From assembly GCA_047178865.1 (NCBI GenBank), contig JBCQSY010000006.1, forward strand, positions 6,065 to 70,064: DNA of 64,000 nt. Reading direction: 5' to 3'. Source of the stretch: Rikenellaceae bacterium. Lineage in GTDB: Bacteria > Bacteroidota > Bacteroidia > Bacteroidales > Rikenellaceae. This document shows positions 6,118 to 47,517 of this stretch, piece after piece. Each line of letters starts with the position of its first letter. Within the stretch, counting starts at the first letter, position 1. The notes under the pieces are model-generated. The model searched no databases. It saw only the letters and a list, made by a program, of their open reading frames with translations, and was not told where the DNA came from. Position numbers and translations under genes: made by a program.

Positions 6118-6963
6118 ATGGCTTGCAATTTACTTAAAGGGAAAAAAGGTTTGATTTTCGGAGCTTTAAACGATCAATCAATCGCTTGGAAAGTGGCACA
6201 ACGTGCCGTAGAAGAGGGTGCAGAAATTGTCTTAACAAATACTCCTCTCTCTATCCGTATGGGTACGATAAACTCTCTAGCCCAAGAGTGTGGCTCAATA
6301 GTTATCCCAGCAGATGCTACTAGTGTTGAGGATTTGGAAATCTTGATAGATAAAACGATGGAACATTTCGGTGGAAAATTCGATTTTATTCTACACTCTA
6401 TCGGCATGTCTCCAAACGTTCGTAAAGGTTATTCATACGACGATTTGAACTACGATTTCTTCTCTAAAACATTAGATATCTCTGCTCTGTCATTCCACAA
6501 GGTGATGCAGGTAGCCTACAAAAAAGATGCTATCAACGAGTGGGGTTCAGTTGTGGCTCTTAGCTACTTAGCCGCACAGCGTACTCTATATGGTTATGGA
6601 GATATGGCAGAGGCCAAGGCGATGTTGGAGTCGATAGCTCGTAGCTTTGGATATAAATATGGAGTCGAGCGAAATGTTCGTGTCAACACAGTATCTCAAT
6701 CACCAACTCCAACCACCGCAGGTAGCGGAGTGCTTGGTCTTGGCAAGTTGATTGATTTGGCTGAGAAGATGTCGCCTCTAGGCAACGCATCAGCTGAGGA
6801 TTGTGCGGACTATATCCTCACTCTATTCTCAGACTTCACTCGTAAGGTTACCATGCAGAATCTATTCCACGACGGAGGTTACTCTTCGGTTGGAATCTCA
6901 GAGGAGGCTATGAATATCTTTATCGAGGGTCTTGAGGTTAAGGCGTCAGAGACAAACGATTAA
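6118..6963 (+). CDS. fabI: Enoyl-ACP reductase (NADH)
   Basis: GALNDQSIAW, LHSIGMS, YGDMAEAKAMLES, HDGGYS. TACATTTG promoter motif at 6085-6092. Confidence 0.95.
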   Translation: MACNLLKGKKGLIFGALNDQSIAWKVAQRAVEEGAEIVLTNTPLSIRMGTINSLAQECGSIVIPADATSVEDLEILIDKTMEHFGGKFDFILHSIGMSPNVRKGYSYDDLNYDFFSKTLDISALSFHKVMQVAYKKDAINEWGSVVALSYLAAQRTLYGYGDMAEAKAMLESIARSFGYKYGVERNVRVNTVSQSPTPTTAGSGVLGLGKLIDLAEKMSPLGNASAEDCADYILTLFSDFTRKVTMQNLFHDGGYSSVGISEEAMNIFIEGLEVKASETND

Positions 6964-6986
6964 AGAGTATTTAAGTTCTCAAAAAA

Positions 6987-7035
6987 AGAGGTTATTCAAG
7001 GTATCTATTTCCATGAATAACCTCTCCTCTTTTTG
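6987..7035 (+). terminator. Terminator after fabI
   Basis: 12-bp stem AGAGGTTATTCA/TGAATAACCTCT followed by a T-rich tail. Confidence 0.65.
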
Positions 7036-7088
7036 ATATAGGTGGAATAGATAAAAAAAATGAAAAATATAAAAAAATTATCTGAAAA

Positions 7089-7122
7089 TTTGTTCTATTC
7101 TAAATAAAAATTCCTAACTTTG
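7089..7122 (+). promoter_or_regulatory. Promoter of the mce-mmd operon
   Basis: TAACTTTG at 7115-7122 with TTTG at 7089-7092. Confidence 0.6.
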
Positions 7123-7172
7123 AGTGCTTAAAAATTCGCAAAAAATTATTTACTACACATAATACAAAAATC

Positions 7173-7577
7173 ATGAAGTTATCACACATTGAGCACCTCG
7201 GTATCGCAGTGAATAGCCTTGAGGAGGCAATCCCATACTGGGAGAATGTCATGGGACTTAAGTGCTATGCCATTGAAGAGGTTGCAGAACAAAAAGTTAA
7301 AACAGCATTTCTCATGCTAGGTCAAACTAAAATCGAGCTTTTAGAGGCTACATCTGAGGACTCTCCTATCGCTAAATTCATCGCGAACAAAGGCATCGGT
7401 ATCCACCACGTAGCATTTGCTTGTGAGGGAATCGAGGAGCAACTCGCCGACGCTGAGGCTAAAGGCATTCGTCTAATCGACAAAACACCTCGTAAAGGTG
7501 CTGAGGGCATGACTATCGCATTCCTTCACCCAAAATCAACTCAGGGTATCCTATCTGAGCTTTGCGAAAAAAAATAA
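7173..7577 (+). CDS. mce: Methylmalonyl-CoA epimerase
   Basis: HIEHLGIAV, TKIELLE, GIHHVAF, IAFLHPKST, ELCE; sits first in the mmd operon. Confidence 0.95.
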   Translation: MKLSHIEHLGIAVNSLEEAIPYWENVMGLKCYAIEEVAEQKVKTAFLMLGQTKIELLEATSEDSPIAKFIANKGIGIHHVAFACEGIEEQLADAEAKGIRLIDKTPRKGAEGMTIAFLHPKSTQGILSELCEKK

Positions 7578-37283: not shown

Positions 37284-37800
37284 TTTTCAGGAGTAAAAAA
37301 TCACACTTTTTATCAAAGAACTACTCAACTACCTCTGCTACATTCTATTACATAGAAGTGACTTTTTTACTCACCACCAACTTTACAGTTTGTTAGCTAT
37401 TAGTAGTTGAAATCGGGTGCAAATATAGGATAGTTATTTGAATAAAAAAAGATATTGGCTACTTTTTTTCACTAAAAAGCAAAAAAAAGTCTACTTACAG
37501 CCACACCTATATATATAAATATTAGGGCATCTTCTAAAACATCACCCAAAACACTCCCCAATAGCTAGCTAACATACGCACTTGGTTACAGCAAAAAGAG
37601 CATCTAATCAATCTCCACCATAGACTAAACAACAACACAAATAGTAAAAAATTTTAAAGATATATTTACTCCTTATACCTACATATAGCTATAAACAGTT
37701 ACTAACTCCGCTACAACCCCTTTAAAATACCCATTTTTAGCTATTGTTCATACCCACTATCTGGGATAACTTTGCAGGAGAAATAATCAAAGAGAAAAAT

Positions 37801-39150
37801 ATGAAAAAAATTTTACTATTATCCCTCTGTTTTGTTGTGCTCACAACTCAAGCACAAACTCAAGAGGATTACAAACTACTACTCGAAAGAGTCGAGGCGA
37901 TGGAGCAGTTGCTCTCTGAGAACCAAGAGGAGTCTAAGAGTGAAGAGCTTAAAGAGTCGATAGACAAAAAGTCACGTCTAACATTTGGTGGTTATGGTGA
38001 GATTACCATGAGTCGCCACTTCTACAGCGACAACTACAAGCGTTACTCAGCCCCAGCATACTACGCCGACGACGAGGGTTACGGACGAGTAGATATTCCA
38101 CATGCGGTATTCTTCGTGGGTTACGATTTTGGTAAAGGCTGGTCATTCGGAACAGAGATTGAGTTCGAACATGGTGGATTAGAGGTCGCCGTAGAGTTGG
38201 AGCAGGAGGAGAATGGTGAATACGAGACCGAGGTTGAGAATGGTGGAGAGATTATCCTCGAACAGTTCTGGATTAATAAGGAGTGGAGCAAGGCTATGAA
38301 TCTAAAGATGGGACACATAGTTCTACCAGTTGGTCAGACCAACAAGTATCACATGCCAAATGAGTACTTCGGGGTATTCCGCCCTGAGGGTGAGTCGACA
38401 ATTATCCCATGTACTTGGCACGAGACGGGCGTTAGTTTCTGGGGTAGTGCTGGCGATTGGTCTTACGAGGCGATGTTTGTTGCAGGATTAGATGCTGAGC
38501 GTTTTGATAGTTGGGGATGGGTCGCTTCGAGTGCTGGTTCACCCTACGAGTTCACCATATCTAACACCTATGCAGGAGCTTTCCGTGTCGATAATCACAG
38601 CGTCAAGAACCTTACGTTAAGCGTGAGTGGATATTACGGACATAGTGCATCAAACTCACTGAAAGATAAATACTCGGAGGATATCAGCGGAGCGGTGAAA
38701 ATCATCTCTTTCGATGGAGTCTATCGCTCGAATATAGTGGTTGCAAGGGCTAACGTGCTCTACGGACACCTCAGCGATTCGGACGTTATCACCACTGGAA
38801 ACAAAAGTTCTGGTACATCATCTATGTCGTCGGGACTACCCGTTGCTGAGAGTGCATTGACCTATGGCGCAGAGGTTGGTTACAATATTCTATCACCATT
38901 CAAAAGAGCCGAGAGCCAGAGCCTATTCCTATTTGGTCGCTACGAGTTCTACGACTCGATGTACACCGTAGCCGAAGGTGTAACAACCAAGGGTTACTAC
39001 TCACGTAACTGTGTGTCGGGCGGTGTTAACTATAGCCCAATACCTGCAATCACAATCAAGGCGGAGTACCAAAGCCGTATGTTCTCAGCACCTTACAATA
39101 CCGAGAACACCGTGATGATTGGTTTCACCTACACAGGTCTATTTAGATAG
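37801..39150 (+). CDS. Outer-membrane porin-like beta-barrel with N-terminal coiled coil
   Basis: Signal peptide, heptad-like DYKLLLERVEAMEQLL, FGTEIEFEHGG, LEQFW, GRYEFYD, terminal IGFTYTGLF. TAACTTTG -7 box at 37767-37774 lies inside the longer ORF call, so start moved to ATG 37801. Confidence 0.8.
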   Translation: MKKILLLSLCFVVLTTQAQTQEDYKLLLERVEAMEQLLSENQEESKSEELKESIDKKSRLTFGGYGEITMSRHFYSDNYKRYSAPAYYADDEGYGRVDIPHAVFFVGYDFGKGWSFGTEIEFEHGGLEVAVELEQEENGEYETEVENGGEIILEQFWINKEWSKAMNLKMGHIVLPVGQTNKYHMPNEYFGVFRPEGESTIIPCTWHETGVSFWGSAGDWSYEAMFVAGLDAERFDSWGWVASSAGSPYEFTISNTYAGAFRVDNHSVKNLTLSVSGYYGHSASNSLKDKYSEDISGAVKIISFDGVYRSNIVVARANVLYGHLSDSDVITTGNKSSGTSSMSSGLPVAESALTYGAEVGYNILSPFKRAESQSLFLFGRYEFYDSMYTVAEGVTTKGYYSRNCVSGGVNYSPIPAITIKAEYQSRMFSAPYNTENTVMIGFTYTGLFR

Positions 39151-39186
39151 CACACATATTATTTATTAACATATAAAAAAACAGTT

Positions 39187-40449
39187 ATGAAAAATTTATT
39201 CAATTTAGTTATCACCGCTTGCGCTACAGCAACATTGGCTCTAGCAGGTGCATGTTCAACAAACGACGCAGATGCGGGAAACTTCTTCCTCTTCGAGGCT
39301 AGTGGCGACGTTGATGGAGTAGATGTTCTTGAGTCTTACGCTAAGGATGTCGTTATCACACGCTACGAGAATCTTGCTGACAAAGCTCAGGCTCTCTACC
39401 ACGCAACTCAGGAGATTACTTTTGGTGCATCGGATGAGTCTACTAAAATCGCTGCTGCCGCTGCTGCATGGGTTGAGGCTCGTTTGGCATGGGAGCGTAC
39501 TGAGGCTTACCTATTTGGTCCAGTAGACCTCTACAAAATCGACCCAGGTATCGACTCTTGGCCTTTGGCTCTTGCCGACCTTGCAGTCTTTATGACAGGT
39601 TACGCTGCAGGAACATACTCAGACTACCACATCGCAAATGATAATGGTGAGAGAAAAGGTTTCCACGCAGTTGAGTTCCTTCTATTCGAGGATGGCAACT
39701 CTAAGAAGGCTCTTACTGACTTCAACAGCGCAGAGATCTCTTCATCTTATGGATTGAGCAGCGTTGCAGGAGCTGATGTTCAGAAGTATCTAGTAGCTAT
39801 CGCAAAGGAGCTATACTACAACACAGTTCTTTTGGTTGCCGAGTGGGAGGATATCGACGCAGTAGCTTCATACGAGGCAGCTGATGCACTTAGCGTTAAG
39901 ACTAACAATGGTGGTGGTTACTACGACGACTTCACAACAGCTGGCGACGACGAGAGCTCTTACTCATCTATCTCTGATGCACTTAGCGTAATCCTTGAGA
40001 ACGCAGCAGGTATCGCCGAAGAGGTTGGTGATGTTAAAATCTCAGACCCATACACTTCAAAAGATGTTCTTGATGTAGAGTCTTGGTTTAGCTGGAACTC
40101 AGTTTATGACTTCACCGACAATATTATCGGTATCAAGGAGGCATACTACGGAAAACTTTACAGCGGTCTATCTGACGACTACACTGCAACAGCTTTCGGA
40201 AGTGCAGCAGCTAACTCAATCAGTGCTTATGTAGCATCTGGTAGCTCAAATTTGGACACTCTAGTAAAAGAGGCTATCGAGGAGGCTATCGAGAAGGTGG
40301 CAGCTCTACCTTATCCATTCAGAAGCTACCTTAGCGATTCGAGCAAATCAGCTGATATCGAGGCTGCAATGGATGCTTGTCTAGAGTTGGTTGACGCACT
40401 AGCTATGGCACAGAGTGCTGTAAACGATGGTTACTATATAACTGAGTAA
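39187..40449 (+). CDS. Imelysin (peptidase M75 / IrpA-like) lipoprotein
   Basis: Lipobox LAGAC; AWVEARLAWERTEAYLFGP, IDSWP, GFHAVEFLLF (GxHxxE), EVGDVKISDP, ESWFSWNS. Confidence 0.9.
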   Translation: MKNLFNLVITACATATLALAGACSTNDADAGNFFLFEASGDVDGVDVLESYAKDVVITRYENLADKAQALYHATQEITFGASDESTKIAAAAAAWVEARLAWERTEAYLFGPVDLYKIDPGIDSWPLALADLAVFMTGYAAGTYSDYHIANDNGERKGFHAVEFLLFEDGNSKKALTDFNSAEISSSYGLSSVAGADVQKYLVAIAKELYYNTVLLVAEWEDIDAVASYEAADALSVKTNNGGGYYDDFTTAGDDESSYSSISDALSVILENAAGIAEEVGDVKISDPYTSKDVLDVESWFSWNSVYDFTDNIIGIKEAYYGKLYSGLSDDYTATAFGSAAANSISAYVASGSSNLDTLVKEAIEEAIEKVAALPYPFRSYLSDSSKSADIEAAMDACLELVDALAMAQSAVNDGYYITE

Positions 40450-40475
40450 CACACAACACAATAACTACAAAAAAA

Positions 40476-42257
40476 ATGAGAAAAGTTTTAAACACAAAAC
40501 TCTCTCTACTTATCATAGCTACATCTCTTCTTGGAGCATGTAGCTATGATACGTCGTTGAGTGAAGAGGAGTTATTAGAGCAGGAGCTTAATCCACTTGG
40601 ATTGGCGGATGAGTACTTCACAGGAGGACTTATGGGAACAACAACAATTAATGGAGTGTTCTGTTTCGAACAGGCGACATATTCAGTCTCGTCGATGGGA
40701 TTGGATAGTGATTTCCTACATGGAGAGGCGTTCTTCGAGGATTACTTCTCCTCAGAGAGAAACGAAGGTTACCCAATGTCGGGACGTGGACCTCTATACA
40801 TTCGTGAATCATGTATTGGTTGCCACCCAGGCTACGGACATGGTAAACGTATGGGAAACCTCGGTGAGGATGTAACATTCGACACCTCGAATAGCGGAAA
40901 TGGATATCTTCTAGTTGTCTACAATAGTGGTGCTGATAAAGACTTTGGTGATGCATCAAGCACAATTACTGATGGTCGTATCGATGGCCCAACTTGGACA
41001 GATGCAACATCTGATAACGCCTATGTTGCCGAGCTTACTGGTATGCCACAGACAAGGAGCGCAACTCCATTCCCAGAGCCAATTGACGAGAGCCAAATCC
41101 AAATCAAATGGGTGAAGTATGTCGACGAGCATGATAATAAGTATAGCGATGGCGAGAGCTACGAGTTGATATACCCCGAAGTTACAATCCCATCGGATGC
41201 TATCTATGGAGTCAACTCAGGTTACTTCGACAACCTCAACAGCGAATCGAAGTATGAGGTTCGCCTAGAGGCAACTATCGGAATCTACGGAACTGGTCTT
41301 ATCGATGCTATCACCGAGGAGGATATCGACGCTGAGTCTGAGGCTCAAGCAGATAAGTCATGGGGAGGTCGTCGTGGTGCATCAATCACACAGCTCGATG
41401 GTTCAACTCGCAAGGGTCGTTACACCTATGGTCTAACACGTGGTACATTGCAACATGGCCCTGGTTCAAACGCACTATGGAACATCACAAACGTCACTCG
41501 TGAGACATCCAACAAGCTATATCGTAGCAACTACGTCACTGCTGCCTATGCTAATGCAGTGTGTGAGGATGTTGATGTTATGACCTCACTTATGAACGAT
41601 AGCCACTACGGCGAGTTCTTGGTGAGCGATGACGACCCATCATCGACCGCCTCGAAGAATGAGGTCTACAACTACTTGTTATGGAACAATGCATATCCAA
41701 CCGAGAAGCTAACCTCGACTACCTACCTCGACCATCTCGACGATGCAACACAGCGTGATGCAGAGCTTGATTTGGACTCTTACACTCAGTTTATGGTGTG
41801 GCATCGTGGTTTGGCTGTTCCTTCAGCTCGTAATATCGACGATGAAGATTTTATCCGCGGTAAAGAGCTATTCTATAGCGAAGAGTTAGCTTGTACGGCG
41901 TGTCACCGTCCATCATGGACAACAGGCTCGGATGATTATGTTGGTGATGCGGATATGGCGGGTAAACTTCCGAAGTATCCAAACCAGAAAATTTGGCCTT
42001 ACTCTGACTTCCTACAGCACAACTTGGGAATGGTTAACAATATCCGCACAGGGTGGTGTCGTACCACTCCACTATGGGGTCGCTACCTCAACTTGGTAGC
42101 TAATGGCGAGAGTAGCCACCTTCACGACATGCGTGCTCGTGACTACTACGAGGCGATAATGTGGCACAATGGTCAAGCTAAATACTCTAGTGATGCATTT
42201 AGAGAGCTTATCAAGAGTGATCGCGACGCAGTGGTTAAATTCCTGAAGTCTATCTAA
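40476..42257 (+). CDS. Di-haem oxidoreductase (DHOR/DUF1111-type) c-type cytochrome lipoprotein
   Basis: Lipobox LLGAC; two haem-binding motifs CIGCH and CTACH; IYGTGLIDAI, PYSDFLQHNLG, RTTPLWG, LHDMRAR, EAIMWH. Confidence 0.9.
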   Translation: MRKVLNTKLSLLIIATSLLGACSYDTSLSEEELLEQELNPLGLADEYFTGGLMGTTTINGVFCFEQATYSVSSMGLDSDFLHGEAFFEDYFSSERNEGYPMSGRGPLYIRESCIGCHPGYGHGKRMGNLGEDVTFDTSNSGNGYLLVVYNSGADKDFGDASSTITDGRIDGPTWTDATSDNAYVAELTGMPQTRSATPFPEPIDESQIQIKWVKYVDEHDNKYSDGESYELIYPEVTIPSDAIYGVNSGYFDNLNSESKYEVRLEATIGIYGTGLIDAITEEDIDAESEAQADKSWGGRRGASITQLDGSTRKGRYTYGLTRGTLQHGPGSNALWNITNVTRETSNKLYRSNYVTAAYANAVCEDVDVMTSLMNDSHYGEFLVSDDDPSSTASKNEVYNYLLWNNAYPTEKLTSTTYLDHLDDATQRDAELDLDSYTQFMVWHRGLAVPSARNIDDEDFIRGKELFYSEELACTACHRPSWTTGSDDYVGDADMAGKLPKYPNQKIWPYSDFLQHNLGMVNNIRTGWCRTTPLWGRYLNLVANGESSHLHDMRARDYYEAIMWHNGQAKYSSDAFRELIKSDRDAVVKFLKSI

Positions 42258-42308: not shown

Positions 42309-42392
42309 CGTCATTGCGGACTTGATCCGCAATCTCATAATAAGCAGATAATCAATACTGTTTAGAGATTGCGGATCAAGTCCGCAATGACG
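42309..42392. repeat. Inverted dimer of a CGTC-tagged palindromic (REP-like) unit
   Basis: 42309-42336 CGTCATTGCGGACTTGATCCGCAATCTC is the exact reverse complement of 42365-42392; each arm is itself ATTGCGGA-CTTGA-TCCGCAAT; 28-nt spacer. Confidence 0.9.
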
Positions 42393-42571: not shown

Positions 42572-43321
42572 ATGAGCCACTTAAGTAGTATAATATCTAA
42601 GTTTCAAGGCATCTCTCTGGGTGAGATGGACGAAGTGAAATTGATGAATAGAACCGATAAAAAGTATTGGTTTTGTCAAGATATGCTCACCCCAATTTTA
42701 GAGGATATCGCTCAAGATTACTTTATTCTAGAGGTCAGCGGTGAGCGTAACCTACCCTACTCCACTACATACTACGACACCGAAAGTAATGAGATGTTCC
42801 AAAACCACCATCGTGGCAAACTCAATCGTTACAAGATACGTCGTCGCAACTACATCTCCACGCAGAGTAGTTTTCTGGAGGTTAAATTCAAAAGCAACAA
42901 AGGTCGAACCATCAAGACCCGACAGACATGTGACTACAACATCAGCGGATTTAGCGATTCGGAGCGAGAATTTATTGCAAAAAACACACCCTATTCATGT
43001 GATAAACTACGCAAGGTTTTAGAGAATAGATTCTACCGTTTGATGTTGGTGAGTCGGAGTATGGATGAGCGTTGCACTATCGACAGCTCGCTGAGTTTTA
43101 GTGGTGAAGGTGGCTCATCGAGCCTTGATAATATGGTTATCGTCGAGGTAAAAAGAGATGGAAAGAGCCCAAGCAGAATCATTGATGCGCTCAATGCTCG
43201 ACGCATTAAACCCTCAGGATTTAGCAAATACTGCATCTGTCGCAGCTATATCGACCAGGGATTAAAGAGGAATAATTTCAAAGGCAAGCTCCGTGAAATA
43301 GGGCGGAAAACAGGTAACTAA
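42572..43321 (+). CDS. VTC (polyphosphate polymerase) domain protein, CYTH-like
   Basis: LMNRTDKKY, TTYYDT, RYKIRRRNY, FLEVKFK, RCTIDSSL, IVEVK, FSKYC; no TM segment. Confidence 0.88.
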   Translation: MSHLSSIISKFQGISLGEMDEVKLMNRTDKKYWFCQDMLTPILEDIAQDYFILEVSGERNLPYSTTYYDTESNEMFQNHHRGKLNRYKIRRRNYISTQSSFLEVKFKSNKGRTIKTRQTCDYNISGFSDSEREFIAKNTPYSCDKLRKVLENRFYRLMLVSRSMDERCTIDSSLSFSGEGGSSSLDNMVIVEVKRDGKSPSRIIDALNARRIKPSGFSKYCICRSYIDQGLKRNNFKGKLREIGRKTGN

Positions 43322-43335
43322 AATATGTACAAATT

Positions 43336-44007
43336 ATGATTGAATGGATGGAGTCTCTCCGTTTTCTGGGGATTAGACTTATTGATTTTGAGGACTTTTT
43401 CGAGTTGATTTTTAGATTTCTACTCAACACTGGTATGCTGCTGCTGATAGTTAGGTTTCCATATCTAAAACATAGCGAGAGCCGCAACTATACCTTTAGC
43501 TTCTTGGCTGTAGGAACAACCGTGTTCCTACTCTGTTTCCTACTCAACAGCGTTAAATTAGAGCTAGGTTTTGCACTGGGTCTATTCGCTATATTTGGAA
43601 TAATCCGCTATCGCACCGATGCTATACCCTTCAAACAGATGACATACCTCTTTGTGGTGATTGGACTCTCGGTGATGAATGCACTCGCCAACAAGAAAGT
43701 TAGCTACACCGAGATACTATTCACCAACTGTGTCATTATCGCTGGATTGTGGCTACTTGAGAAGTTCCTCAATCGTCGCAATGAGGCCTCGATGAGGATT
43801 ATCTACGAAGATATCTCAAAGGTCAATATCGAGAAGTATGACGAACTTCTCGAAGATTTAAGAGCACGCACAGGCTTTGATATACACCACTTCCAGATTC
43901 AGAAGATAGACTATCTACGTGATGTGGCGAGCATTATGATATATTTCCACTGCAACGACAACAACCACTTCGTTGCGGATAACAGACCAGAAGAAGAGGA
44001 GGAGTAG
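43336..44007 (+). CDS. DUF4956 family membrane protein
   Basis: LGFALGLFAIFGIIRYRT, MTYLFVVIGLSVMNAL; several TM helices plus soluble C-terminal domain (IDYLRD). Confidence 0.88.
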   Translation: MIEWMESLRFLGIRLIDFEDFFELIFRFLLNTGMLLLIVRFPYLKHSESRNYTFSFLAVGTTVFLLCFLLNSVKLELGFALGLFAIFGIIRYRTDAIPFKQMTYLFVVIGLSVMNALANKKVSYTEILFTNCVIIAGLWLLEKFLNRRNEASMRIIYEDISKVNIEKYDELLEDLRARTGFDIHHFQIQKIDYLRDVASIMIYFHCNDNNHFVADNRPEEEEE

Positions 44008-44010
44008 TAG

Positions 44011-44703
44011 ATGAGTTTCAAAAGATTAATTCTAACAGCTGCATTACTTATAAGCAGCATTGCAGCAGCCTTTGCCGATGGGACAAAGGATGATGTCGAG
44101 GTGCTCTATAAGTATCAATTCTCAGCCGAGGTTGAGTATAAGATAATCAAGGGGTTGAGTGTCAATTTCAGCCCAGAGTTGCGATTTTGTGAGGGGTATG
44201 ACAAGCTACTTCTCAACGCAGGTGTAGAGTATAAGATGTTTGGATGTATCCACCTAGGGGCTACATATCGCCTAGATGTCGATAGAGTCGAAGGCTCTGG
44301 CAGCTCATACTCGATGTCGGGATTTGGTAATAACTACGATTCGGAGGTGTCGCATCGCTACGCTTTTGATGTGACATATAAGGAGAAATTCGGGCGTTTC
44401 ACTCCATCATTTAGGGTGAGGTACAACAACTTCACCGACGAGGATATCGACGATAAGGAGTTTCTGCGCTATCGTGCAAAGGTCGATTACAACATCCGCA
44501 AGTGTAAAATCACACCATACCTATCAGTTGAGGCGTACCAAGATTTAACAGAGAATCTGCTCTACAAAATGCGCTACGCCACAGGATTTGATTTCGATAT
44601 GAACAAAAAATCAGCCATCTCGCTAGATTACAAATTTGACTTCTACTGCTTGGAGTATAAGAATGCAAATATCTTTAGCGTTGGTTATAAATATAAATTC
44701 TAG
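44011..44703 (+). CDS. Small outer-membrane beta-barrel (DUF2490-like)
   Basis: Signal peptide, alternating beta strands, LRYRAKVDY, PYLSVE, C-terminal GYKYKF. Confidence 0.78.
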   Translation: MSFKRLILTAALLISSIAAAFADGTKDDVEVLYKYQFSAEVEYKIIKGLSVNFSPELRFCEGYDKLLLNAGVEYKMFGCIHLGATYRLDVDRVEGSGSSYSMSGFGNNYDSEVSHRYAFDVTYKEKFGRFTPSFRVRYNNFTDEDIDDKEFLRYRAKVDYNIRKCKITPYLSVEAYQDLTENLLYKMRYATGFDFDMNKKSAISLDYKFDFYCLEYKNANIFSVGYKYKF

Positions 44704-44705
44704 TT

Positions 44706-46133
44706 ATGAACTCAAAAATTATCACTTTCGCAGCACTATTAATAGCCATTACGGTGGTTAGCTCATGTCGTAATGATGAGTATATATATTGGGATATCTA
44801 CTGGGACAACGACGATGAAGAGTACGACCCTTCGCTGGTAGACACGGAGACATTCCCCGACTGGACGGAGCTAACACATAGCAATGCAGCAGCTCCAGAT
44901 TACAACACTGTTTTCGAGCAGAATAAAGTGCTACGACTCGACCTTACAATCAGCTCGTCGAACTGGAGTTCAATGCTCTCGGATTTGAGTAGCAACATCT
45001 CGTCGGGCAACAATATGATGGGCGGAAATAATATGGATAGCGACCTAGGATTTACTCCCGTGTGGAAATCATGTACTGTCACCTTCAACGACACCGATTG
45101 GTATAAGGTGGGTGTGAGATTCAAGGGTAATTCGAGCCTGAGCACAACATACTCTTCGGGAAATCGAAAACTCTCTCTGAAGTTGAGTTTCGATAAGTAT
45201 GAGGATGACTACCCAGCCCTAACCAACCAACGTTTCTATGGATTCAAGCAGCTCAACCTCAACAACAACTACAACGACGAGTCGTTGATGAGAGAGAAGA
45301 TTGGTACAGAGCTATTCCGCAGCTTTGGCATTGCAGCGCCTCAGACCTCTTTCTGTGAGGTATATATCGACAAGGGTTCGGGAGCGGAGTACTTCGGACT
45401 ATACACGATAGTCGAGGAGGTGGACGACACGCTTATCGACGACACGGAGTGGTTCAGCGATGGAGGAGGTAACCTCTACAAACCCGAAGATGATGCCGCT
45501 TCGTTCAAATCAGGAACATACGACACCAGCGAATTTAACCTCAAAACCAACCTCACCTCACCCGACTATAGCGACGTAAAAGCTCTCTACGATGCTCTAC
45601 ACAGCTCTAATCGAACCTCAAATCAGAGTGATTGGTGTGAAGGAGTAGAGAGTGCGTTCGATGTCGAGACCTTCCTTAAGTGGTTGGCTGCAAATACTAC
45701 TATTCAGAATTGGGACACCTACGGCAATATGACACACAACTACTTCCTCTACAACTATAACGGGCTGTTGACGTGGATTCCGTGGGATAATAACGAGGCA
45801 TTTCAGAGTGGCAATGATGCCATCGAGGTTGATGAAATGAGTATCGTAGGCTACTCGTGGCCACTGATAAAGTACCTCTTCGATGTCGAGGAGTATGAGC
45901 AGATGTATAAAGATTACCTGCGCGAATTTATCAACGAGGTATTCATCACAGCTGATATGCAGAGCCTCTACACAAGCTACTACAACCTGCTCCTCGACTC
46001 GGCAAGTCGCGAGGAGAGTGGCAAAACATTCTTCGATTCGTCAAGCCCAAGTACGGAATTTAGCAGCGCAGTGTCGACCCTTAAGAGTCATGTGGTGAGC
46101 AGAACAACGGTTGTAAACAACTATTTAGATTAA
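44706..46133 (+). CDS. CotH-family protein kinase, lipoprotein
   Basis: Lipobox VVSSC; VRFKGNSS, LSLKLSFD, LNLNN, MREK, GLYTIVEEVD, NWDTY, HNYFLY, IPWDNNEAF. Confidence 0.88.
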   Translation: MNSKIITFAALLIAITVVSSCRNDEYIYWDIYWDNDDEEYDPSLVDTETFPDWTELTHSNAAAPDYNTVFEQNKVLRLDLTISSSNWSSMLSDLSSNISSGNNMMGGNNMDSDLGFTPVWKSCTVTFNDTDWYKVGVRFKGNSSLSTTYSSGNRKLSLKLSFDKYEDDYPALTNQRFYGFKQLNLNNNYNDESLMREKIGTELFRSFGIAAPQTSFCEVYIDKGSGAEYFGLYTIVEEVDDTLIDDTEWFSDGGGNLYKPEDDAASFKSGTYDTSEFNLKTNLTSPDYSDVKALYDALHSSNRTSNQSDWCEGVESAFDVETFLKWLAANTTIQNWDTYGNMTHNYFLYNYNGLLTWIPWDNNEAFQSGNDAIEVDEMSIVGYSWPLIKYLFDVEEYEQMYKDYLREFINEVFITADMQSLYTSYYNLLLDSASREESGKTFFDSSSPSTEFSSAVSTLKSHVVSRTTVVNNYLD

Positions 46134-46311
46134 GAATCCTATTTTACTAATAGAACCACTATTAGCTGCGATACCAAAATTAAAAAGCAAAATAGGACAT
46201 AGCATATTTAAGCAGAAAAACTTAAACAGATTCTAAAAGGTCTCTTTAACAACATTGAATTTTTGTGTGTTTAGTGAGAAAAATATAAATAAAAAAGGTA
46301 TCTTTGCAGTG

Positions 46312-47517
46312 ATGATACATGAAAGAAAAATATTAGCCATTGAGTTTATAGTAGTAATCCTGCTATGGATATTCGTGATTATCACTCCGCTGCTATTGGT
46401 TGATGACTTCGACCAGGATTGGATAACTGTTCATATTATGTGGGCGGAGTATGCTGTTGTGGGTTTTGCATTCCTGCTCAATAGGCTTGTCTTGATGCCA
46501 CGCCTTTTTTTCGCTAAAAAGTATATTAAATATGCCCTATCACTAGCGACATTATTTCTACTTCTAGGGCTATTTGTTATACGCTTTGATGGAATTAACA
46601 AGACCCTCTCACTCTTTGGCATAGAGGCGGTTGATCCTCAATCACCTCGCGCAATGGATGGAAATACCCCCAGGCCACTATCATATAGAGATGAAATTGC
46701 TCGCAGAGATGAATATCCTCGATACGAGGATGACTCTCTTCGAGATGGAGAGTATTCACGACCACCTCGCCGAAGAGGAGTTATGCGTCCAACTTCATCT
46801 CCTCACTCACTCTCAATCTTTCCACCATCATTCTCGTTACTATTCCTTGCGATGATTGTTATCGCTCTGGATATGGGTCTGAGTATCGCCGTGAAGTGGT
46901 TGATATCGGAGCAGAAACAGGCTCACAGTGAGAAAGAGAGGGTCTCAGCACAGCTCTCGAACCTTCAGAGTCAGGTGAGTCCCCACTTCTTTATGAACAC
47001 GCTGAACAATATCCACGCGCTGGTCGATTTGGACTCTAAGCGTGCCAAGCAGACCATTATCGAGCTATCAAGTTTGATGGATTATCTGCTCTACGACAGC
47101 TCGACACAAGAGAGCGTATCGCTACAGAAAGAGTTGGATTTTATCTGTAGCTACGTCAACTTGATGCGTCTGAGATACTCCAACACGGTGAATATAGAGC
47201 TTATATATGGCAATAATGTACCAGTGGTTCAAGTGCCACCGCTACTATTTTTGAACTTTATCGAGAACTCGTTTAAGTATGGAATAGATTATGAACACGA
47301 CTCATTCATCAAGATTGAGTTCGACTTCAACGAGAAATTTATCGAGATGAGAGCTAAAAACAGCAACCATTCGAAACTAGTTAATAGCCAACGACATGGA
47401 TTGGGCATAAGCAATGCTTGCAAACGACTAGAGCTACTATATGGGGATAACTACACCCTCGATATAGATGAAAAAGAGAGTACATTTAATGTAAACCTAA
47501 AAATACCAACACTATGA
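46312..47517 (+). CDS. LytS/YehU-type sensor histidine kinase
   Basis: N-terminal TM helices; LQSQVSPHFFMNTLNNI, PPLLFLNFIENSFKYG, GLGISN. TATCTTTG at 46299-46306 argues for a start at ATG 46312. Confidence 0.92.
   Translation: MIHERKILAIEFIVVILLWIFVIITPLLLVDDFDQDWITVHIMWAEYAVVGFAFLLNRLVLMPRLFFAKKYIKYALSLATLFLLLGLFVIRFDGINKTLSLFGIEAVDPQSPRAMDGNTPRPLSYRDEIARRDEYPRYEDDSLRDGEYSRPPRRRGVMRPTSSPHSLSIFPPSFSLLFLAMIVIALDMGLSIAVKWLISEQKQAHSEKERVSAQLSNLQSQVSPHFFMNTLNNIHALVDLDSKRAKQTIIELSSLMDYLLYDSSTQESVSLQKELDFICSYVNLMRLRYSNTVNIELIYGNNVPVVQVPPLLFLNFIENSFKYGIDYEHDSFIKIEFDFNEKFIEMRAKNSNHSKLVNSQRHGLGISNACKRLELLYGDNYTLDIDEKESTFNVNLKIPTL

Follow-up and report, generated by a model that had tools for sequence, protein, structure and literature searches.

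A porin-imelysin-DHOR operon of a Rikenellaceae bacterium as a candidate iron-acquisition module with a regulon-wide, non-Fur operator

Pairs of an imelysin lipoprotein and a di-haem cytochrome of the DHOR family (formerly DUF1111) have been tied to iron uptake since 2011, without an assigned biochemical function. Operons that combine the two without EfeU were described as putative outer-membrane iron clusters, and fusion proteins of imelysin and DHOR have been reported (Xu et al., 2011; PMC3143127). Co-fitness has been reported across operons of the EfeO-like/DUF1111/EfeO-like/DUF1513 type (Price et al., bioRxiv 072470). The M75 domain of EfeM binds Fe2+, Fe3+ and Cu2+ as well as Zn2+, and both IrpA and PIBO, the imelysin of Bacteroides ovatus, share the HxxE site of this domain (PMC9174327). 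In Bacteroides thetaiotaomicron, the locus BT2473-BT2482, which encodes a porin, a thiol oxidoreductase (= DHOR), a peptidase M75, CcsA, a helix-turn-helix (HTH) regulator and hypothetical proteins, is induced 63-324-fold by iron depletion and 14-33-fold in colitis (PMC10434189). Here we describe an operon of this kind, encoding a porin-like barrel, an imelysin lipoprotein and a DHOR cytochrome, in a 64-kb stretch of DNA from a Rikenellaceae bacterium (contig JBCQSY010000006.1), which is called the window below; operon coordinates are given on its plus strand throughout. The cassette is already known in kind, the imelysin and DUF1111 pairing from 2011 and the Bacteroides locus from a published iron stimulon, and the present analysis compares the window's copy with these systems and defines the operator and regulon to which it belongs.

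The porin-imelysin-DHOR cassette

The three genes are co-oriented, are separated by intergenic gaps of only 36 and 26 nt, and form one operon (Table 1). A first-pass annotation of this DNA had described three tightly spaced genes behind a single promoter box, and all the elements of this three-gene observation are present in the sequence. The open reading frame (ORF) coordinates bear out the spacing, and the Bacteroidetes -7 box TAACTTTG begins exactly at position 37767, where the annotation had placed the start of the operon. The mature proteins of all three genes are acidic, with pI values of 4.0-4.8. An ORF and Pfam survey revealed no TonB-dependent receptor or permease within the three-gene cluster. 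The annotation had noted both absences; that of a TonB-dependent receptor holds for the cluster, while that of an inner-membrane permease is limited to the cluster and does not extend genome-wide, because a co-regulated FeoAB is encoded elsewhere in the genome.

A scan of species-representative genomes with a porin profile recovered at least 583 loci, of which the best 80 entered the cassette and operator counts. These 80 loci come from Rikenellaceae, Muribaculaceae, Bacteroidaceae, Tannerellaceae, Porphyromonas uenonis, Odoribacter, Paludibacteraceae and Lentimicrobiaceae. The imelysin gene directly follows the porin gene in every one of them (80/80), and the DHOR gene follows the imelysin gene in all 77 informative loci, the remaining three ending at a contig edge. 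The porin ATG is preceded, at a distance of 20-50 nt, by a TAnnTTTG box in most of these loci. The trio is thus a fixed cassette in gut Bacteroidales. Downstream sequence of at least 6.5 kb is available for 53 loci, and 43 of these carry a CcsBA gene directly 3' of DHOR, so the cytochrome usually brings its own haem-attachment enzyme; in the window's genome, ccsBA has moved away from the cassette to another contig, C16. The cassette is accessory: in an even sample of 201 genomes of the order, 18 encode DHOR. The second, GxxxxE imelysin-like protein and the DUF1513 protein of the proteobacterial form are absent. Because the cluster consists of only three genes, with tRNA genes and tuf on one side and VTC, DUF4956, DUF2490 and CotH genes on the other, we regard it as a Bacteroidales variant.

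The second gene of the operon matches the Pfam family Peptidase_M75/imelysin (PF09375; E 6.9e-48), residues 57-402 corresponding to profile positions 2-285 of 288. The match spans both four-helix-bundle domains in the canonical, non-permuted order. Relatives in the PDB are 3n8u (B. ovatus PIBO; E 1.8e-40), which is circularly permuted with respect to the query, and 4ecg, which is collinear with it. The GxHxxE motif reads G158-F-H160-A-V-E163 (GFHAVE). Residues W102, E103, E106, D119, D123, G158, H160, E163, E279, K284 and E298 are invariant in 76 imelysin sequences, as is the lipobox cysteine, Cys23. The earlier assignment of a GxHxxE imelysin lipoprotein is therefore borne out by the Pfam match, by G158, H160 and E163, and by Cys23.

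The porin ORF has two possible starts, TTG 37744 and ATG 37801; the latter, which opens a signal peptide (MKKILLL...TQA/QT), is the likely one. Its product matched no Pfam family and, by sequence, no PDB entry, and in NCBIfam it gave only a weak N-terminal match to TDE1717, far under the cut-off. It has more than 5000 homologues, every one annotated as 'hypothetical'. The AlphaFold2 (AF2) model shows a beta-barrel after an N-terminal helix (residues 21-54), with a pLDDT of 65 and a pTM of 0.65, and a Foldseek search with this model, whose pLDDT is only 65, retrieved 16-stranded general porins such as OmpC, OmpU and OmpM1 (E ~1e-8, TM 0.5-0.66). Of the 'coiled-coil porin' that had been proposed, the barrel is supported by AF2 and Foldseek, whereas the coiled coil is not, since residues 21-54 are only a predicted helix, and this helix is variable or absent in most homologues. 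The homologue alignment revealed an invariant acidic/His segment, EIEFEHGG-LEVAVELEQEENGEYETEVENGGEIILEQFW, at residues ~119-157, with the invariant pattern EIEFEHGG..E.AVE.E.EE.GEYE.EVE.GGE..LEQFW, together with five invariant histidines. The C-terminal residue is aromatic and the pI of the mature porin is 4.8. The alternating Glu pattern of this segment, across which the AF2 model is unreliable, would suit a cation-binding lumen or constriction.

The third gene matches the Pfam family DHOR (PF06537; E 8e-39; 133.9 bits against a cut-off of 22). Its CxxCH motifs, CIGCH at 113 and CTACH at 473, are invariant in the family alignment, as are Met519 and His550, and the lipobox cysteine is Cys22. 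The two-CxxCH lipoprotein of 593 aa was correctly recognized by the first-pass annotation, while the 'long acidic stretches' assigned to it are mostly Rikenellaceae-specific: insertions of ~90 aa in all account for the extra length and acidity, and the DHORs of other Bacteroidales are ~500 aa long. Searches of the PDB with phmmer and with a profile found nothing beyond the generic CxxCH stretch, and Foldseek with the DHOR model returned nothing significant, the top match being MauG (E 0.49, probability 0.12), so that a function cannot be assigned to DHOR from its fold. Neither the sequence nor the fold searches linked DHOR significantly to MauG, BCCP or MbnH, and a literature search on DHOR biochemistry returned nothing relevant.

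The two-haem reading implies c-type cytochrome maturation, and the lack of ccs genes had been named beforehand as a possible refutation. A fused CcsBA (ResB+CcsA) of 815 aa is encoded at C16:19168-21616 of the same genome, and its counterpart adjoins DHOR in most related loci, as described above. This ccsBA is the only one in the genome and lies directly downstream of a gene for an HzsA-like di-haem protein. The genome encodes four such large two-CxxCH proteins, whose middle domain is that of hydrazine synthase alpha (PF18582) and of which three also contain a fused FGE-sulfatase domain; sites of these PF18582/di-haem proteins are on C16 (393-3663, 13357-19154), on C5 (23284-27292) and at C6:73032-75407, just past the end of the window. 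A beta-propeller di-haem protein is encoded as well. Such a complement of c-type cytochromes is unexpected for a 1.9-Mb gut Rikenellaceae-like genome.

The surface-export signal (LES) of Bacteroides lipoproteins has been defined experimentally as CS(D/E)2 (PMC6222051, PMC5080379). In the DHOR family, Asp or Glu is found at position +3 after the lipid-attachment Cys in 67% and at +4 in 74% of the sequences; the corresponding values for the imelysin family are 52% and 49%. Because these family-wide residues follow the CS(D/E)2 rule, both lipoproteins are predicted to face outward.

Operator, regulon and candidate regulator

When the sequences 5' of the 80 porin genes were aligned at their -7 boxes, a conserved operator emerged. 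Its consensus, ~wATACCyA-N4-TrGGTATTG, can be read as two inverted heptamers, TACCyAn, with a 2-nt spacer, and the terminal TTG is the -33 element. The window's copy, AATACCCATTTTTAGCTATTGT, lies exactly 20 nt 5' of the -7 box and overlaps the -33 element (TTG at 37744-37746), and an operator is conserved 5' of the porin gene in ~70 of the 80 loci. A scan of the whole genome with the position weight matrix (PWM) gave seven matches of at least 19 bits, representing five distinct sites, compared with 0.4 in Markov-1 simulations, and at all five sites the 22-mer stands exactly 20 nt 5' of a TAnnTTTG box. The window's promoter also contains an extra half-site, ATACCCAC, in the -33/-7 spacer; a similar one occurs at a promoter on contig C41, and a regulatory role for it is putative. 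A Fur box had been expected at the promoter and was ruled out, as the conserved motif is unlike a Fur box and the genome lacks Fur and DtxR. Neither Fur (PF01475) nor the DtxR C-domain (PF02742) nor FTR1 (PF03239) was found in this genome, whose estimated completeness is 100%.

The five sites precede the porin operon, feoAB, two TonB-receptor operons and a unit without an ORF. The feoAB gene encodes a FeoA-FeoB fusion, recognized by its FeoA and FeoB Pfam matches, and the proposed check for feoB and FTR1 accordingly found the former present and the latter absent genome-wide. The first TonB-receptor operon encodes a TonB-dependent receptor (TBDR), a DUF4374 protein and a ferric-reductase-like membrane protein and resembles XusABC, while the second encodes a small His-rich membrane protein followed by another TBDR. 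The former of these two products (C3:58850-59218) is a 122-aa membrane protein with an HSH...HSH...HTH cluster and with no Pfam family above the cut-off. The ORF-less unit, ~150 nt long (C14:4498-4715; L146:99-316), has a strong terminator hairpin and then a U-run at its end and is a candidate iron-starvation small RNA (sRNA); it matched no Rfam family, and its folding z-score is -3.7. A comparable unit, likewise lacking an ORF and provided with a terminator, stands behind the operator in another genome (L121), and in a Tannerella-like genome (G006, locus L136) the operator and promoter are followed by a 59-aa ORF with a Cys-rich tail, MRMCSCCCMHR.

The exact operator and promoter pattern occurs 31 times in 18 Bacteroidales genomes, against no match for the reversed control. 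Among the genes that follow the 31 matches are those for the porin (ten), feoAB (two), TBDRs (three), HmuY (in P. uenonis), a flavodoxin, a ZIP transporter and an NlpA lipoprotein, as well as the hemerythrin gene of a hemerythrin and LuxR/GerE pair (two). Judged by their identities, the operator-linked genes constitute a predicted iron/haem-starvation regulon, and the sharing of the operator with feoAB, TBDR, hmuY and flavodoxin genes provides in silico support for an iron-responsive regulation of the window's cassette. The link of the operon to iron that the first-pass annotation had proposed is well supported by this common operator-promoter architecture and by the iron response of the B. 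thetaiotaomicron counterpart. The operator at feoAB is present in Rikenellaceae and in some Tannerellaceae and Muribaculaceae and is absent in Bacteroidaceae. Since feoAB lacks it in the latter family, regulon membership varies by lineage, and the idea of one universal regulon across the cassette-bearing genomes was dropped.

Iron regulation in this genome appears to run through the heptamer operator instead of Fur or DtxR. Genes for a hemerythrin-domain protein and a LuxR/GerE-type regulator are found on contig C33, and pairs or fusions of hemerythrin and GerE proteins adjoin the cassette in 9 of 62 loci. The heptamer TACCyAn in its 7-2-7 arrangement resembles what we take to be NarL-type GerE-domain sites. 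The hemerythrin-partnered LuxR/GerE (CdhR-type) protein on C33 is the likely candidate to act on the operator. Such pairs correspond to PG1236/CdhR (PG1237) of Porphyromonas gingivalis and to BT0519-0520, which are themselves iron-induced, and CdhR controls hmuYR in P. gingivalis. CdhR is without a published DNA motif (PMC11018363), and it is we who infer a link between the window's operator and a CdhR-type regulator.

Proposed mechanism and alternative explanations

On balance, we think it somewhat probable that the operon is an iron-starvation-induced outer-membrane iron-acquisition module that feeds Fe2+ to FeoAB. When iron is low, a regulator at the inverted-heptamer operator overlapping the -33 element would turn the promoter on, and FeoAB, the Xus-like xenosiderophore receptor operon and the second TonB-receptor operon would answer to the same operator. 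CcsBA would attach the two c-haems to DHOR in the periplasm, and DHOR and the imelysin would be anchored in the outer membrane as lipoproteins. At the membrane, DHOR may alter the oxidation state of iron, and reduction of Fe(III) to Fe2+ is favoured because FeoAB is the sole iron permease found and FTR1/EfeU are absent. The HxxE/acidic site of the imelysin may then capture the ion, and the Glu/His-lined barrel may let it into the periplasm without TonB, from where FeoAB would import it. This relay of redox protein, imelysin and porin is plausible, and the redox direction and the pore selectivity are proposed here from the genes and their co-regulation. A broader scheme for gut Bacteroidales, in which a surface di-haem cytochrome and an imelysin on a Glu/His porin provide a TonB-independent reductive route to FeoAB and in which, in addition, the whole regulon (the cassette, feoAB, the Xus-like receptors, hmuY, the flavodoxin gene and the sRNA) is governed via the 7-2-7 operator by a hemerythrin-coupled LuxR/CdhR-type regulator and not by Fur, is more tentative, and we rather doubt that all of it will hold.

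Several observations weigh against the iron-acquisition module. An outer-membrane reductase needs an electron donor and none has been identified, which is a real weakness. There is no DHOR with a known biochemical function and no structural relative of the modelled DHOR, and the porin and DHOR models reach only a moderate pLDDT of 65. Thermofluor detected no binding of Fe3+ or haem by PIBO (PMC3143127), and the LruB imelysin-DHOR-imelysin operon of Leptospira is induced not only by low iron but also by H2O2 (PMC7567364). Surface exposure in the window's organism is uncertain because its own LES motifs are weak (CSTNDAD, CSYDTS), whereas its closest relatives carry canonical motifs. The operator of Bacteroidaceae stands before the porin operon and not before feoAB. 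Finally, no convincing operator site was found before the hemerythrin/LuxR operon of the genome itself, although the hemerythrin/LuxR operons of two other genomes do carry one.

The H2O2 induction of the Leptospira operon fits an oxidative direction, in which DHOR would be an H2O2-dependent ferrous peroxidase and the imelysin would hold Fe3+, like EfeB/EfeO of Bacillus subtilis; the module would then mainly guard against peroxide/Fenton chemistry while concentrating iron. Pfam calls DHOR a 'putative peroxidase', the B. thetaiotaomicron locus is induced in colitis, and models of EfeUOB put ferrous oxidation upstream of the M75 protein. This direction is nevertheless rather unlikely in a gut anaerobe, for which H2O2 is scarce, and in a genome without FTR1/EfeU or another Fe3+ permease, where FeoAB takes Fe2+ and the co-regulated genes serve uptake and not peroxide defence. 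DHOR may alternatively be a MauG/MbnH-like protein-modifying enzyme that does not act on iron and instead oxidises a residue of the imelysin (or of the porin) into a metal site, MbnH/MbnP presumably being the analogue of the DHOR/imelysin pair. The obligatory pairing of imelysin and DHOR in the 77 informative loci, the reported fusions of the two (PMC3143127), the failure of the recombinant imelysin alone to bind Fe3+ or haem, and MauG as the best, though non-significant, fold match would all fit such a role, which we still consider quite unlikely given that DHOR matched MauG, BCCP and MbnH significantly in neither sequence nor fold and that no requirement for a modification was reported with the crystal structures of PIBO and IPPA.

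The strict co-inheritance of the barrel and the lipoproteins, the surface-export signals on both of the latter, and the low confidence with which the acidic segment was modelled would also be compatible with a barrel that is a scaffold or translocon of the Sus or Mtr type, anchoring or exporting both lipoproteins while iron enters otherwise. This role is improbable, since the modelled fold resembles open 16-stranded diffusion porins and neither plugged barrels nor those of 22-26 strands, the segment of invariant, alternating Glu and His has the look expected of a cation-selective lumen or constriction, and Bacteroides LES lipoproteins generally need no dedicated barrel. As to the substrate, a divalent metal other than iron (Mn, Zn or Cu) would agree with the binding of Cu2+ and Zn2+ by the EfeM M75 domain, with the ZIP transporter gene that is under operator control elsewhere, and with the incomplete specificity of iron-depletion chelators, yet the regulon consists mostly of iron/haem genes (feoAB, the Xus-like TBDR, HmuY and flavodoxin), and we give another metal only a marginal chance.

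Should the iron-acquisition module indeed deliver iron to FeoAB independently of TonB, it would account for the way in which anaerobes bring iron through the outer membrane, and common gut commensals would then display c-type cytochromes on their surface. Of the imelysin-DHOR systems, the Bacteroidales form is the simplest: it comprises a single pore, imelysin and cytochrome, in most cases accompanied by a haem-attachment enzyme of its own; its locus is among the most strongly iron-induced in B. thetaiotaomicron, is also induced in colitis, and occurs in genetically tractable species. The present analysis contributes a defined operator with its regulon and, as a candidate regulator, a protein other than Fur; it further shows that CcsBA is linked to the cassette almost constantly, predicts that both lipoproteins face outward and identifies an invariant acidic segment in the pore.

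Genomic surroundings and comparison with known systems

Upstream of the operon, the opposite strand carries tRNA genes and tuf. The end of the operon is marked by a REP-like nested palindrome (Table 1), which may act as the terminator. A near-identical palindrome is also found upstream of the hemerythrin/LuxR genes on contig C33 (plus-strand 6642-7349), so these elements represent a repeat family dispersed in the genome. The downstream operon (42572-46133) encodes a VTC domain protein (gene at 42572), a DUF4956 protein, a DUF2490 barrel and a CotH kinase-like lipoprotein; it possesses a separate promoter region and has no relation to the iron cassette. It is followed by a gene for a LytS-type histidine kinase at 46255-47517.

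Table 1. Coordinates of the operon and its regulatory elements in the window
Feature	Position	Strand	Basis
Operator, inverted heptamers TACCCAT-TT-TTAGCTA then TTG	37726-37747	+	PWM from 80 loci, 25-26 bits
Extra half-site ATACCCAC in -33/-7 spacer	37750-37757	+	Read from sequence
Bacteroidetes -7 promoter box TAACTTTG (TAnnTTTG)	37767-37774	+	Read from sequence
Porin-like beta-barrel, 449 aa	37801-39150	+	AF2 model and Foldseek
Imelysin (Peptidase_M75) lipoprotein, 420 aa	39187-40449	+	Pfam match
DHOR (ex-DUF1111) di-haem c-type cytochrome lipoprotein, 593 aa	40476-42257	+	Pfam PF06537
REP-like nested palindrome (CGTCATTGCGG...CCGCAATGACG)	42309-42392		End of operon, before next promoter

Among the described systems, BT2473-BT2482 shares the barrel, the peptidase M75 and DHOR with the window, and related Bacteroides loci (L009, L033 and L077) have the same gene order and operator. 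The B. thetaiotaomicron locus contains CcsA/ResB, whereas the window's cluster is without an adjacent ccsBA, HTH regulator, fimbrillin or extra hypothetical genes; the window genome's ccsBA and hemerythrin/LuxR genes are on other contigs (C16 and C33, respectively). Candidates for the orthologue of the barrel are BT2480 and BT2477. Unlike its counterpart in BT2473-BT2482, the window's DHOR carries the lineage-specific insertions described above.

The Fur-regulated icmP cluster of Pseudomonas aeruginosa (PA4370-PA4373), VC1264-VC1267 of Vibrio cholerae and the LruB cluster of Leptospira likewise combine a GxHxxE imelysin lipoprotein with a di-haem DHOR, are iron-regulated and have no permease (PMC3143127, PMC7567364, bioRxiv 072470). 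These proteobacterial and Leptospira clusters have a second, GxxxxE imelysin-like protein, often a DUF1513 beta-propeller, and Fur, whereas the Bacteroidales cassette contains only one imelysin, together with an acidic porin and, in most cases, a dedicated CcsBA, and its operator of inverted heptamers is not of the Fur type. EfeUOB and EfeM resemble the window's system in combining an M75 metal-binding protein with a haem peroxidase-type partner in iron uptake. The window's system differs from them in having neither EfeU/FTR1 nor a cupredoxin domain, in using a c-type di-haem DHOR and not a DyP protein, and in its predicted location, which is the outer membrane, compared with the periplasm and inner membrane for EfeUOB and EfeM.

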